Positions 39,640 through 57,881 of a DNA stretch of 64,000 nucleotides are shown one piece after another (the stretch's first letter is position 1; each line of letters starts with the position of its first letter). The notes under the pieces were generated by a model, which was given only the letters and a program-made list of their open reading frames with translations, made no database searches and was not told the DNA's origin. Source of the stretch: a bacterium. GTDB taxonomy: Bacteria; Bdellovibrionota_C; UBA2361; CALJRW01. The stretch spans positions 1 to 64,000 of the forward strand of contig JANNBC010000054.1 in assembly GCA_031385045.1 (NCBI GenBank), in the 5' to 3' direction. The translations under genes and the position numbers were made by a program.

Positions 39640-39840
39640 TAAACCCTCCGCAGATGAAATTTGCGGAGGGCGAGCGTAATCTTGGCTTTAGCTAAGTTAC
39701 GCCGTAAAAGACAAAACCAATACTCATCGCAGATGCGTAGGGTTTGGTTGTGTTTTCTACGGCACAACCTGTCTTCGACAGGATTTTGCTCGCTCACCTT
39801 TCTTTTCATTTTTTATCAAAAATGAAAAGCGGTGAGTATA
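39640..39840. repeat. About 200-bp structured repeat, copy 1 (MITE-like or structured RNA)
   Basis: Reverse-complement match to 41211-41413 (about 20 differences in 203 nt by hand alignment); ends TAAACCCTCCGC ... GCGGTGAGTATA; five internal hairpins. Confidence 0.9.
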
Positions 39841-39869
39841 ATTTTTTTACCCACTTTGCTTAAATTGCA

Positions 39870-40577
39870 ATGAACAACGAAAAACTTCAAATCAATACAC
39901 CTGCAACGGAGCAGAACCAATCCCAGATTAACCTTACTGGTGAATCCGTTCATTTAAGCTCTGGAGCTATTGCCTTTAAATCTACTGGTTTAATTAAGCA
40001 GACACCAGCTTTTAGAGTTATTTCTAATAAATTAGCCCCGTTTAACTATAATCCAGTACCAAGTTATAAAATTCAAGATACGATTTATGTAGTAGCCCTA
40101 GGCTCTGCTGGCTTTACAGCACAAAGAATTAAAACCGATAATCGTCAAGAAAGATTAAACCAAATCCACAGGGCTTGGAATATCCAAGTTTTGAAGGACT
40201 TTTGGAGTCATATGGTAGCTCATCCTCTGCCAGAAGAGGAGCTTTTTGCTGAATTTGGATTAATCATTGCTTGTCGTAAGTTTGTGATTCAAACAGCAGG
40301 TGAATCGAAGGAAGTTTGGGACACCACAATTTGGAAAGTTAATCAGGGAGAAATTAAAGCCTACCATCAGTTTATCTCGAAGCAAGAACCAGTTCCAATG
40401 TCACTACAACTAGACTCAGGACAAGTAGAACGAATTTTCTTGTTAAATGAGAAAGAGGCCTTGCACTTAAATTCAGAAACTAATGAAATTGAATTAATGC
40501 AAGTGACTGAAGGCGCAAAACTACTAGCCACAAACGAAGTCGAAAGCTTAGAGGCTTCTACAAAAAAAGTTGCTTAG
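39870..40577 (+). CDS. Hypothetical protein
   Basis: 235-aa ORF with no recognisable motif. Confidence 0.6.
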   Translation: MNNEKLQINTPATEQNQSQINLTGESVHLSSGAIAFKSTGLIKQTPAFRVISNKLAPFNYNPVPSYKIQDTIYVVALGSAGFTAQRIKTDNRQERLNQIHRAWNIQVLKDFWSHMVAHPLPEEELFAEFGLIIACRKFVIQTAGESKEVWDTTIWKVNQGEIKAYHQFISKQEPVPMSLQLDSGQVERIFLLNEKEALHLNSETNEIELMQVTEGAKLLATNEVESLEASTKKVA

Positions 40578-40580
40578 AGA

Positions 40581-41063
40581 TTAGTTAGCCTTACTACAAT
40601 CGACAAAGCTTATTGCTGCAGTCTTTAAATCAGCTACGCTACCTTCCGCTAAGGTTGGAGAATCTGATAATTCCAACGTTGCTACCAGCTCAATCTCAAT
40701 TAGAGACCCAAGTGGCAAGCCCGCGACTTGAACTGTTGAACGAGTCGGATAACCAGGCCCAGGCCCCATCCACTTTGCATAGATCTCATTTACAATACTA
40801 AAATCCCGAAGATTAATCATAAAGATTGTAGTTTTTAAGGTGTAAGAGAAATCTAATTGTAAAAAGTTAAGAATCGTCAAAAGATTTCGCATCACTTGTT
40901 CTGTTTGACCTTGAATTCCACCATCAACAATTTTATTGCTTATTGGATCTAAGGGAATCTGCCCAGAAAGATAGACTAAATTATCAATAATTGTAGCTTG
41001 GGAATACGGCCCTAAAGCTTCTGGAGTATTGGGAACACCATTGATATAACGAATTGTAGACAT
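40581..41063 (-). CDS. ridA: RidA/YjgF family imine deaminase
   Basis: GPYSQA, LSGQIP, KTTIF, PTRSTVQVAGLP, IEIE. Confidence 0.9.
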   Translation of the reverse strand: MSTIRYINGVPNTPEALGPYSQATIIDNLVYLSGQIPLDPISNKIVDGGIQGQTEQVMRNLLTILNFLQLDFSYTLKTTIFMINLRDFSIVNEIYAKWMGPGPGYPTRSTVQVAGLPLGSLIEIELVATLELSDSPTLAEGSVADLKTAAISFVDCSKAN

Positions 41064-41210
41064 AACTGATTTTTAAATTTAGTCAGAAGAAATTCTATCT
41101 AAAACCTAGTAGTTTTTTATAGTAATCATTTTTTATAGAATTACTCTAGACCTAGTATTATCAAAGAATCTCTAAAAAAGACAGTACTGTAAATAACAAA
41201 ACAAGGTACT

Positions 41211-41413
41211 TAAACTCACCGCTTTTCATTTTTGATAAAAAATGAAAAGAAAGGTGAGTGAGCAAAATTCTGACGCAGACAGGTTTTGCCGTAGAGAACA
41301 ATACTAAACCCTACGCAAATTAGCGGTGAGTATTGGTTTTGTCTTCTACGGTGTAACTTGGCTTAAGCCAAGATTACGCTCGCCCTCCACAAATTTCATC
41401 TGCGGAGGGTTTA
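41211..41413. repeat. About 200-bp structured repeat, copy 2 (inverted relative to copy 1)
   Basis: Ends TAAACTCACCGC ... GCGGAGGGTTTA; same hairpin set as copy 1. Confidence 0.9.
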
Positions 41414-54377: not shown

Positions 54378-55967
54378 TTAATTTTTGGAATTAACAAATG
54401 GTAATAACTCATCTGGAGTAATCCCTTGTTTGCTTCGATCAAGGATATCATTTACTTCACCAAACAAATCATCTGGATGCATTCCACGGTTAAGTAAATC
54501 ATTCAGAGTTAATCTGCTAGCATTTGAGATTGCTCCATTTCGCTTATCACTTGTAATTGCCTGATGTTCCGTAACAATTATAGAAGAGCAAAACTCTAAT
54601 AACTCCTGAAGCGCCTGCATGTTAGGTTTTTGTAAGCCAAGCTCTTTCGCCATATCGTATTTGCGAGAAATCATTAAACCACCTAAAGCCTCAGTAATAT
54701 TTTTAATATGATTAATCTCGCGATCAGAAATCCGAATATCCATTTCTACAATTACTGCCTTGAAAAAGCCTCTGAAGATCTCTCGAGCCATATCTTCTAA
54801 AGTATTTCCGGAAGTCTTCCCTTGCTCTTCTAACTCTTGCACGTTAGCAGGTTGGTTGTGATGGGCATAAGTACCAATTAGAACATTAGCAATCTGGGAG
54901 ATCTCAGCCTTACCATTTTGAACCAAAGAGGCCATGTGTAAGTTCTTGCTAGTCTCATCAAAGTACCCACCACCAATTGGCACATCTTTTAAGATATCCA
55001 TACGAAACTGACGCTCACCAGACAGTTGATAGGTAACTTCTTTTAAAACTTTGGATACAACGCCTAGCTTATCACCAAGAACATAATCAACTGCTTCAAT
55101 AAAAGGAGTCATAACTGCGTTAAGTCTTCCAGTTTCTACTCCAGCAGAATTAATTCGAAAAAAAGAAGCAATTGAAGCAACACAATCATGCAAAGCCGTA
55201 TGCATAAAGCCAGCAAGATAAGCAGAAGCTGGAAGCTTTAAATCTGTATCCATGGAAGAATAGAATCCATTATGATCAGATACACCATCGCGGAATTGTC
55301 TAGCTAAGACTGCAAGCGAGGCAACATACATTGCCGTTCCTTTTCCAGAGTGCTTTAACTCAGGAAGGTTCAATCTATCCCAAAGCTGATGAAAGCCGAT
55401 ATGGTTTGGATAAACAAACTCCAAATTGCCAATATGCCCTTTATCTAAATCGGGAGTGGTATATGCAGAAAGTCTTTCTCTCTCCAAAGCCAGCGCACTC
55501 GCATCACGAGTATATTTAAAATCATCTCCTGGATAATTTGGAGTAGCGAAGATTCGCAGATATAGACCGTTGTGACCTGGTATAGAAAGATTGGTATAGG
55601 CATTATTTAGCTGTGTTGCTGCCTCAGCAACCTTAACTCCAATTGATGTTAAAGGAGAATGCTCCCCTAGGGCATCCCTAGGCATTGTTGGACAACAAAT
55701 ACTTAAAGATAGTGGACGTTGCTCTACTGCAATTCGCTCCTGAAGTAATTTTTGGAAACCATGATCAAGCCTTAAATGTGCAAGACTATCAGAAAACTCC
55801 AGCTGCTGAGGTGTTAATTTTCCCTGCATCTTAGCAGTAGATAAAATATTTAAAATTTCATCAGTGGAAGGAGGAAGACCTTGGCCTAACGTAACATCTG
55901 GAAGCTTAGCTACGTGTCGAATAAACTCTACAGGCTTGGGCCCGAAGTTTTGAATTTTTTGTGACAT
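54378..55967 (-). CDS. Divergent GpgS-like GT-A glycosyltransferase, paralog 1
   Basis: GKG, DTD (DxD), FFR..GR, YQLSGE, GYFDE, YAHHNQ, LEDMA follow the GpgS motif order; start 55967 by alignment to paralog 2 (alternative 56009). Confidence 0.65.
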   Translation of the reverse strand: MSQKIQNFGPKPVEFIRHVAKLPDVTLGQGLPPSTDEILNILSTAKMQGKLTPQQLEFSDSLAHLRLDHGFQKLLQERIAVEQRPLSLSICCPTMPRDALGEHSPLTSIGVKVAEAATQLNNAYTNLSIPGHNGLYLRIFATPNYPGDDFKYTRDASALALERERLSAYTTPDLDKGHIGNLEFVYPNHIGFHQLWDRLNLPELKHSGKGTAMYVASLAVLARQFRDGVSDHNGFYSSMDTDLKLPASAYLAGFMHTALHDCVASIASFFRINSAGVETGRLNAVMTPFIEAVDYVLGDKLGVVSKVLKEVTYQLSGERQFRMDILKDVPIGGGYFDETSKNLHMASLVQNGKAEISQIANVLIGTYAHHNQPANVQELEEQGKTSGNTLEDMAREIFRGFFKAVIVEMDIRISDREINHIKNITEALGGLMISRKYDMAKELGLQKPNMQALQELLEFCSSIIVTEHQAITSDKRNGAISNASRLTLNDLLNRGMHPDDLFGEVNDILDRSKQGITPDELLPFVNSKN

Positions 55968-56264
55968 TATAGGAATTCTAGTTAAATCAAGTTTAGCGTC
56001 ATTCAACATATAGGTCTTATGAAATCAAAGCAATATTTAGAGCTTAAAGTAACAGTATGGTTATGACTACTAGGAGAATTATCGTGATTAAATAATCAAC
56101 AATTTTGGGCCAAACGTTAAGATATTTGAAATGTGTCGATTAAGGCTTATTCTAATAAAAATAATCTTTAATTTATCTAATTTAATATTAAAAATACTAT
56201 AAATTATTGTAATTTCTGAGTGAAATTAGCAGAAATTCAAGCAAGATAACTAGGCTATCTTTGT

Positions 56265-57881
56265 CTATTCAAAACGCCTTAAATCACTTGGCTTAATTCC
56301 ATCAGAGCTATCTTTTAAAATAGTATTAACTTCTCCAAAAAGCTGTCGACTACCAGCTCTTAATAAAACATCTTGCAATGTAAGGCGCGGAGAATCCGTA
56401 ATTTGACCAGCAGCATAAGCCGTATTTACATTGTTAAATTCAGTAATAATCGCTCCACAGAAATGAGTCAGTAAAGACTTCAAAGCTTTTTCATTAGGGG
56501 AATTTAAACCAACATCTTGAGCCAACTCACTTTTTTGCCCAATCATCATTGCGCCATACTTGTAAGTTAAATCAGAAACTTGGGCGATCTCTTCCGGATA
56601 AATTCTAAATTTCATTTCCGCAACAATAGCCCTAAAAAATCCTTGAAGAATTTCGGAAGCCATATGCTCCAATGTCCTTCCAGAAGAAGCATTGTTTTGA
56701 GCAACCAGCTCATCGCGATTTGCAGGCTGGTTATGATGCGCATAGGTACCAATTTGCACATTAGCAATATCACTTTCCCTTAATGGATAATTTGGATCGA
56801 TAACCTTACTTGCTAAATCCAGATTGATACTAGTTTCATAAAAATATCCTCCACCAATTGGAATATCTTTTAAAAGATCTGTGCGGAACTGTCGTTCACC
56901 GGATAACTGATAATTAATTTGTCTAATAACGCCCATCACCTCCCGAAGACCTGGTCTATGCTTTGTATTCTGACCAAGGACACGCTCAAATGCTTCCATA
57001 AAAGGTGTCATGATTGCATTTAATCTACCAGTCTCAACGCCCTGCGCATTAATTCGAAAGAAGGAGGCAATTGAAGCCACAGAATCATGCAGGGCAGAAT
57101 TCATAAATCCTGCTAAGTAAGCAGACGATGGAACTTTTAAATCAGTATCCATCGCAAAATAAAAACCATTTCGATCAGGTATTTGCGCTTCAAATTGACG
57201 CGCTAAAACTGCTAGAGAAGCCACAAACATTGCCGTTCCCTTCCCAGATTTCTTTAACTCAGGAAGCTCCAACTTGTCCCACAAATTAAAAAACCCAACA
57301 TGATTTGGATAAACAAACTCTAATTTTCCAATTTGATTTCCTCGCAGATCAGGATGTGTGTAAGCAGATAAACGAGTCCTTTCTAAATCTAAAGACCTTT
57401 GATCCGTAGCATAAACATCAAAATCTTTTCCTGGATAATTTGGTGTAGCAAAAATACTCATCAATACGGCAACTCGTTTTTCCGCATCAGGAACATTTGG
57501 GAAATTTGGAATCTGATGATACTCATCAAACAATTTTTTTGCTGCGTAAGCTACTTTTCCACCTATAGCTGGCAAAGTAGTATTCTCACCTAGACTATCT
57601 CTAGGCATCGTAGGACAGCAAACATTCACTGCCCAAGATCTACCATTTAAAATTCTTTGAGTGAGTGAATGACGAAAATCTGAACCAAAAGTTAAATGAG
57701 AAAGATCGGTGTAAAGTGATCTTTGCTCATTAGTTAAGGAACCTTCTTGAGACTTTTTTTCTAGGGTTTGTAAGATCTCATCAGTAGATGGAGGTAGGCC
57801 GTTAGCTAAGTGTCCCTTGGGGTATAAAGTAGCAACTGTACGGATGAATTGTTCCGGACTAACACCAAAGGTATTCAACAT
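56265..57881 (-). CDS. Divergent GpgS-like GT-A glycosyltransferase, paralog 2
   Basis: Same motifs (SGKGTAM, MDTDLK, ETGRLNA, YQLSGERQFR, GTYAHHNQPAN); probable start MLNTFG at 57881. Confidence 0.65.
   Translation of the reverse strand: MLNTFGVSPEQFIRTVATLYPKGHLANGLPPSTDEILQTLEKKSQEGSLTNEQRSLYTDLSHLTFGSDFRHSLTQRILNGRSWAVNVCCPTMPRDSLGENTTLPAIGGKVAYAAKKLFDEYHQIPNFPNVPDAEKRVAVLMSIFATPNYPGKDFDVYATDQRSLDLERTRLSAYTHPDLRGNQIGKLEFVYPNHVGFFNLWDKLELPELKKSGKGTAMFVASLAVLARQFEAQIPDRNGFYFAMDTDLKVPSSAYLAGFMNSALHDSVASIASFFRINAQGVETGRLNAIMTPFMEAFERVLGQNTKHRPGLREVMGVIRQINYQLSGERQFRTDLLKDIPIGGGYFYETSINLDLASKVIDPNYPLRESDIANVQIGTYAHHNQPANRDELVAQNNASSGRTLEHMASEILQGFFRAIVAEMKFRIYPEEIAQVSDLTYKYGAMMIGQKSELAQDVGLNSPNEKALKSLLTHFCGAIITEFNNVNTAYAAGQITDSPRLTLQDVLLRAGSRQLFGEVNTILKDSSDGIKPSDLRRFE

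Follow-up and report, generated by a model that had tools for sequence, protein, structure and literature searches.

Inverted 200-bp repeats around two resident genes are probable IS630-derived miniature elements

The window, a 64,000-nucleotide stretch of one contig from a draft bacterial genome (G000; 2.83 Mb, 61 contigs, 95% complete, in which repeats may be unassembled), contains two inverted repeats of about 200 bp that enclose an orphan ORF and a Rid-family gene. We conclude with high confidence that each repeat is a non-coding MITE derived from an IS630 element, and that the two copies, here called A and B, were likely inserted separately at TA dinucleotides and mobilised in trans by an IS630 transposase. 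A MITE family had been among the readings offered by the initial annotation of this DNA, and homology of the repeat ends to those of a full-length IS630 element (L199) now identifies the parent of that family.

The repeat pair and its neighbours

By BLASTN, copy A (39640-39841, forward strand) and copy B (41413-41210, reverse strand) are 90.2% identical over 204 columns (E 6e-75), and the alignment falls to background beyond the element ends, giving sharp boundaries. TA is found at both termini of each copy, and no ORF of 80 aa or more overlaps either, leaving short, non-coding elements. The outermost 12 bases of the terminal repeats, read from the sequence, agree at 9 of 12 and 10 of 12 positions. 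When the right end is reverse-complemented, the left end aligns with it, and the likeness reaches about 80–90 bases inward. Surrounding the pair are an SNF2 helicase gene (reverse), the orphan ORF (forward), the Rid-family gene (reverse) and a GH3 gene (forward). The initial annotation had described two reverse-complement copies about 90% identical, imperfect 12-bp terminal repeats with TA at their ends, and two convergent genes enclosed by copies that lie in divergent spacers (SNF2/orphan and ridA/GH3). Each of these observations was confirmed, the terminal likeness proving longer than described. Two further long copies and shorter family members lie elsewhere in the genome, beyond the view of that annotation. 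The features of the locus are as follows.

39640..39641, no strand: TA, presumed left target duplication of copy A (sequence; a single TA stands at the empty sites of other copies)
39642..39838, forward: copy A core, probable non-coding IS630-derived MITE, 197 bp (same TA filled in the sister species G001)
39642..39716, forward: copy A left end, in the order terminal motif, hairpin 1, conserved linker, hairpin 2, conserved inner motif (alignment to L199 left end, predicted fold)
39644-39670, forward: copy A left-end hairpin 1, shortened relative to the parent
39676-39700, forward: copy A left-end hairpin 2 (predicted fold)
39738..39838, forward: copy A right end, starting with the inner motif (alignment to L199 right end, predicted fold)
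39768-39782, forward: copy A right-end hairpin (predicted fold)
39793-39836, forward: copy A terminal hairpin (predicted fold)
39813..39842, forward: candidate sigma70-like match (10 of 12) made of right end, TA and two flank bases, 27 nt 5' of the orphan ATG
39839..39840, no strand: TA, presumed right target duplication of copy A (sequence)
39870..40577, forward: orphan ORF, 235 aa, a resident gene and not cargo (ortholog in G001)
40581..41063, reverse: Rid-family (ridA-like) gene, 160 aa, resident and not cargo (PF01042, TIGR00004)
41211..41212, no strand: TA, presumed target duplication at the right end of copy B (sequence)
41213..41411, reverse: copy B core, 199 bp, same MITE family as copy A (orthologous spacer empty in G001)
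41412..41413, no strand: TA, presumed target duplication at the left end of copy B (sequence)

A dispersed family in the source genome

Four long copies are present in G000, namely A, B and those at C27:66471 and C54:66556, with 90–92% identity to copy A. Five clear copies and a few decayed ones are about 150 nt long and consist only of the right end and the first left hairpin. Solo copies of about 50 nt (C54:298202-298253, C54:237922-237973 and C60:82063-82111) join the outer half of the left end to the outer half of the right end; since they hold only these half-ends, about 24 bp per end may suffice, and their sequence suggests a functional end of that length. Some element match was found in 15 of 61 genomes, while plasmid and phage collections yielded no detectable DNA relative of the element.

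Sixteen G000 sites comprise 5 divergent, 10 co-directional and 1 convergent spacers, to be set against 35%, 52% and 12%, respectively, of the available intergenic WTAW sites (by crude ORF calls). Divergent spacers are therefore not favoured, and the preference for divergent promoter regions suspected from the window pair is not supported for the family. Gene-context counts for G001 were dropped: the crude ORF caller placed 11 of 41 pieces 'inside' genes, most likely an artefact.

Several individual sites deserve mention. A short copy at C2:53863-54012 (L327, L346) lies in the ATP synthase operon a few bases before a start, between atpB-like and atpE-like genes (named from reading), and this site is empty in G001. 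Another TA-bounded inverted-repeat family, 81 nt long and unrelated inside, is found at C2:72790, C27:99 and C53:25851. Tandem or nested arrays of element ends were seen in L008 (from G055) and L301, an arrangement suggesting that elements inserted at a TA inside other copies or exchanged unequally at the terminal motif.

Filled and empty sites in a sister species

G001, a sister species in the same genus, contains at least 71 element matches (40 of 81 candidates were scored), and 41 full or partial pieces were extracted from it. A syntenic G000 region was found for 32 of the 41, and at 27 of these the G001 region is at least 130 nt longer. Copy A is the only one of the 32 comparable sites that is filled in both species. 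At the window locus the four genes of G001 keep their order and orientation, and copy A occupies the same TA. Copy B is absent: on the GH3 side of its orthologous spacer, the two genomes align again from the element boundary. G001 likewise lacks the long copy on C27 and the short ones found in the C6 and atpB-atpE spacers. No element was seen in the G001 counterparts of two C54 spacers, which are too diverged for a clean junction.

Among 35 scored G001 pieces (two of them partial), TA is found at the left in 29, at the right in 27 and on both sides in 23; in metagenomes TA precedes 103 of 113 scored ends. The target consensus is weak (W-TA-W). A single TA is left at clean empty sites, including L046, the atpB-atpE spacer and, by eye, L045, L050b and L055. 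In a strict test on nine empty sites with both flanks alignable, one retained exactly TA, six retained 3–7 bases including TA, and two did not fit. Such inexactness is expected for species so far apart, yet the result falls short of proof of TA duplication. The checks of copy number, empty sites and target duplication called for in the initial annotation thus returned dispersed copies, filled and empty sites and a TA, with only one exact site in nine. A 4-bp target duplication was considered and rejected by eye, as many copies have different four-base flanks at their two ends. Of note, one tRNA-gene spacer (Tyr by reading) holds a short copy in G000 (C27:6714-6863) and, about 30 nt away, a long copy in G001 (L066:1569-1793); these are two separate insertions in one spacer.

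An IS630-family parent

Matches to the element's left and right ends lie up- and downstream, respectively, of transposase pieces in four relatives (G046, G070, G079 and G081), and in G046 an element end adjoins all nine DDE_3 matches. A metagenome contig, L199, which is among the matches listed in a pattern scan of metagenomes, carries an end-to-end IS630-family element of 1,274 bp between two TAs, with one gene between imperfect inverted repeats. Its 309-aa frame scores 209 bits against NF033545 (cut-off 100) and has the triad D140, D221, E256 (DD34E). A 334-aa protein on record (P0001) is 97% identical to this frame, and homologs of the transposase carry PF13358 and HTH domains. From the phylum labels of close transposase relatives, the host is likely an uncultured bacterium of Bdellovibrionota-like affinity. 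The MITE matches the left ~77 and right ~105 bases of the L199 element. The left part of copy A scores 84 against the L199 left end (mean 23.6 and maximum 39 in 500 shuffles), and its right part scores 94.5 against the right end (mean 25.0 and maximum 53.5 in 500 shuffles). From the same parent, two-ended derivatives of 330–365 bp occur in metagenomes.

The L199 frame appears frameshifted near its start and another copy (L221) has an internal stop, so that no fully intact element was seen as DNA. Parent copies from several sources (L003, L141, L187 and L199) share a frame break near codon 25 relative to P0001, which may reflect the spread of a dead lineage or recoding. G000 itself, in its 95% complete, 61-contig assembly, gave no DDE_3 match and no match to the L199 protein, and G001 yielded a single IS630, which is distantly related (28% identity) and lacks such ends; the mobiliser may therefore have been lost or be unassembled. 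A transposase bounded by the same ends, which the initial annotation had proposed to look for, is thus found as an IS630 gene in relatives (L199, G046) and not in G000. A search for a closer autonomous partner covered 91 genomes from the order and 124 from the phylum and yielded nothing but broken pieces, in 4 and 5 genomes, respectively; two pieces from another order (G121) lack such ends. The L199-type parent was recovered from metagenomes or from a different family within the order and is therefore best regarded as a relative of the true mobiliser. Other relatives of the L199 transposase, among those listed, have short ends, and the end profiles had no match outside the L199 group among the relatives listed.

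By analogy with ISY100 and Tc1/mariner biochemistry, the IS630 transposase would bind the outer ~24 bp of each end, excise the element and join it to a TA that is duplicated on repair. The MITE copies would be cut and pasted in this way in trans. For ISY100, the transposase alone is described as binding a 24-bp repeat, excising the element and inserting it at TA (PMC2170065).

Folding of the ends

The predicted fold of copy A is very stable on both strands (z -10.6 and -10.1; none of 200 shuffles was as good). Much the same hairpins are predicted for the parent, whose ends resemble each other over about 90 bp (78 matches in the first 92 positions, including a 46-bp identical run). Each end is predicted to consist of the outer repeat, an inverted copy of itself and a second small hairpin. 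Within the first 44 bp of the parent ends, 12 of 13 differences form six mirrored pairs that keep the outer hairpin. These mirrored changes fit selection on the fold and would also fit template-switch copying between the arms. The strong folding of the MITE copies is inherited from the ends of the parent IS630.

In the terminal hairpin of the short family, 8 of 19 pairs change on both sides with 97.8% of cells paired; none of 500 shuffles showed covariation as high, in a shuffle that ignores relatedness, and slid controls were far lower. The long family gave no covariation support (covariation term +0.69; 6 of 55 pairs). An Rfam scan returned no family at gathering score, the best match being 21.8 bits against a cut-off of 42, and six further loci had no matches.

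Many G001 copies (L052-L068) contain a palindromic module of about 30 nt in their hairpin loops, even within itself; it is absent from the window copies. The module also occurs in other repeats and has no apparent target duplication, and 23 matches were found in G000 (including C2:124851, C6:28815, C55:18700-19560, C24:95370 and C24:111561). From the sequences, this looks like hairpin-loop targeting by some enzyme. Several G001 copies have a second module, also about 30 nt long, at a constant position ahead of the terminal hairpin.

Alternative origins of the repeats and of the pair

A hairpin-rich, intergenic element could also be of the REP/REPIN-like kind, with an HUH nuclease of the RAYT/IS200 type as its mobiliser, and all five genomes searched for Y1_Tnp genes contain them. 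None of the 17 Y1_Tnp loci, however, holds an element match within about 1.5 kb on each side, against nine of nine DDE_3 matches in G046, and a TA on both sides together with terminal repeats fits a DDE enzyme. The HUH nuclease with the same ends that the initial annotation had also suggested seeking was accordingly missing from these loci, and we regard such an origin as exceedingly improbable. The stable predicted fold and the covarying terminal hairpin of the short family would also suit a host-born, multi-copy structured RNA or leader, a reading that the initial annotation had entertained along with an Rfam scan as its check. Yet the scan yielded no known family at cut-off, the occupied sites differ between sister species, the long family lacks covariation support, and template switching in palindromes could also mirror changes. 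The same hairpins belong to IS630 ends, and the parent element largely overturns the structured-RNA origin, which we now consider highly improbable.

With the repeats taken as IS630-derived MITEs, the arrangement of the pair must still be accounted for. Inverted copies around two genes could represent a 1.8-kb cassette, composite or invertible, by which the orphan gene and ridA are carried or flipped, as had been suggested for this locus: homologous recombination between the copies would invert 1.4 kb, the geometry would in principle let a transposase use the two outer ends together, and MITE pairs that carry cargo have been described (the integron mobilization unit, IMU; PMC3184786). The sister species speaks against this, since G001 keeps the SNF2, orphan, ridA, GH3 order and orientation with copy A only, a synteny that does not support a cassette. 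Moreover, copies A and B are 8.9% apart whereas copy B and the C27 copy are 3.9% apart and group together with support of 94/87. The ends facing outward are the left ends in both cases, a separate pair of TAs bounds each copy, and the enclosed genes have diverged from G001 about as far as the neighbours outside. An IMU-like composite has identical copies that move foreign cargo as a unit, while here the copies differ and the genes are syntenic with one copy alone. A cassette is thus very unlikely. Because copy B is nearer to the C27 copy than to copy A and is absent from the orthologous G001 site, the bracket probably arose from a separate insertion, which agrees with the independent insertions also proposed in the initial annotation. 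The inverted arrangement around two host genes is likely a coincidence in which the second copy landed 1.4 kb away in the opposite orientation. Rare inversion by homologous recombination between the copies is possible; Logan unitigs of four runs break inside the repeats, list no joints and carry no orientation information.

As to the enclosed genes, the orphan ORF has an ortholog at the same place in G001 with 75% identity. It is likely a real gene, because this identity is retained between species despite near-saturated silent sites. Among 91 genomes of the order, two, each belonging to this genus, gave a match to its protein, and searches of Pfam, NCBIfam and Atlas gave none. The Rid-family protein matches PF01042 and TIGR00004 (124 bits, cut-off 106), and its gene is syntenic in G001 with 91% amino acid identity. 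About 30 residues of this protein (40581-41063) extend beyond the Pfam domain and are retained in G001. Elsewhere in the window, 54844-57460 contains direct repeats, 74–86% alike at a spacing of about 1.9 kb, likely a tandem gene duplication.

A TA site filled by copy A in both species

Occupation of the same TA by copy A in both species is not expected from a simple recent neutral insertion. Four-fold sites of four neighbouring genes differ by 63–69% between G000 and G001, whereas the two copies A differ by 9%. We tentatively propose, as an addition to the MITE origin and not in place of it, that copy A was co-opted by the host, its right end serving as promoter or 5' structure of the orphan gene and kept by selection. 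Neither copy A has any change from the family majority in the last ~58 columns, which hold 52 of the 236 changes of the other 14 copies (P about 0.004, with the boundary chosen post hoc), and the right end forms the 10-of-12 sigma70-like match 27 nt before the orphan ATG. A precedent exists in the Black promoter of Correia elements, described with the -35 inside the element and the -10 completed by the insertion site (PMC2649163).

Several observations weigh the other way and leave co-option somewhat unlikely in our estimation. No derived base is common to the two copies A. The 16 long copies make up a single star-like family, unsorted by species, which fits a recent burst; an old, constrained copy would imply that the entire family had ceased to change. 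Two hits on the same TA, or passage of the allele from one species to the other, would explain the sharing as well, although such a double hit is itself unlikely because the target consensus is so weak. Promoter-like matches are no commoner than chance in the region (5 against 6.0 expected), so the sigma70-like match is no evidence on its own.

Comparison with known elements

The MITE family is IS630-derived, TA-targeting and RUP-like, and as such is a known kind of element. RUP, the repeat unit of pneumococcus, has been proposed to be moved by IS630-Spn1 (PMC2229807, PMC3049150). Like the present MITE, it is described as short, non-coding and intergenic, bounded by TA on either side, with a predicted folded transcript and with terminal repeats that it has in common with an IS630-family element. 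However, RUP is given as about 107 bp long with a 9-bp paired terminus and about 110 copies, whereas the present MITE is about 200 bp long with four long copies and consists almost wholly of two ends of about 80–105 nt with their own hairpins. The parent resembles ISY100 (ISTcSa) and the IS630 family in having one IS630-family DDE transposase, flanking TA and imperfect terminal repeats (PMC2170065). The functional end of about 24 bp to which the solo copies point also compares with the 24-bp repeat of ISY100, yet the terminal repeats of the parent extend over about 90 bp rather than about 24 bp.

Correia repeat enclosed elements of Neisseria (CREE/NEMIS) are likewise reported as TA-bounded MITEs in which the end together with the flank can create a sigma70 promoter and the hairpins may influence mRNA (PMC2649163). 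Promoter activity and RNase III cleavage have been demonstrated for CREE, while the putative promoter of the present MITE is a sequence match only (PMC2649163). The likeness is one of architecture and implies no sequence relationship. In the IMU, too, two MITE copies flank other genes, but there the copies are described as identical and carrying cargo (PMC3184786); those in the window are 9% apart, differ in their presence in the sister species and enclose resident genes.

A search of the literature on IS630, MITEs, hairpin or subterminal ends and nested modules, with supplements and ISfinder outside its scope, found no description of the MITE family or of double-hairpin IS630 ends; absence of the family from print is not thereby established.

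Implications for the IS630 family

As a MITE the element is ordinary; what is unusual is its long ends, which are predicted to fold into hairpins. Together the sequences provide a readable series of a full IS630, internally deleted copies, derivatives of 330–365, 200, 150 and 50 bp, and empty sites. To our knowledge, few bacterial MITE families offer such a complete series.

A broader scheme, which is speculative and which we rate as unlikely, would place these sequences in a structured-end IS630 clade within one order of uncultured bacteria. Each ~90-bp end would fold the transposase-binding repeat into a hairpin with co-changing arms, the fold being under selection for transposition or as a built-in promoter/terminator module. 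The miniature derivatives would act as portable regulatory parts, copy A having been retained at one site, across a deep split between two species, as the driver of an orphan gene confined to the genus, and the hairpin loops would be landing sites of the 30-nt palindromic module.

If copy A does drive the orphan gene, the locus would offer a datable example of a host promoter that arose from a transposon end. For the IS630 family, about 24 bp of double-stranded repeat has been taken to suffice; should the mirrored hairpins be needed for transposition, they would add a DNA- or RNA-structure requirement to this family.
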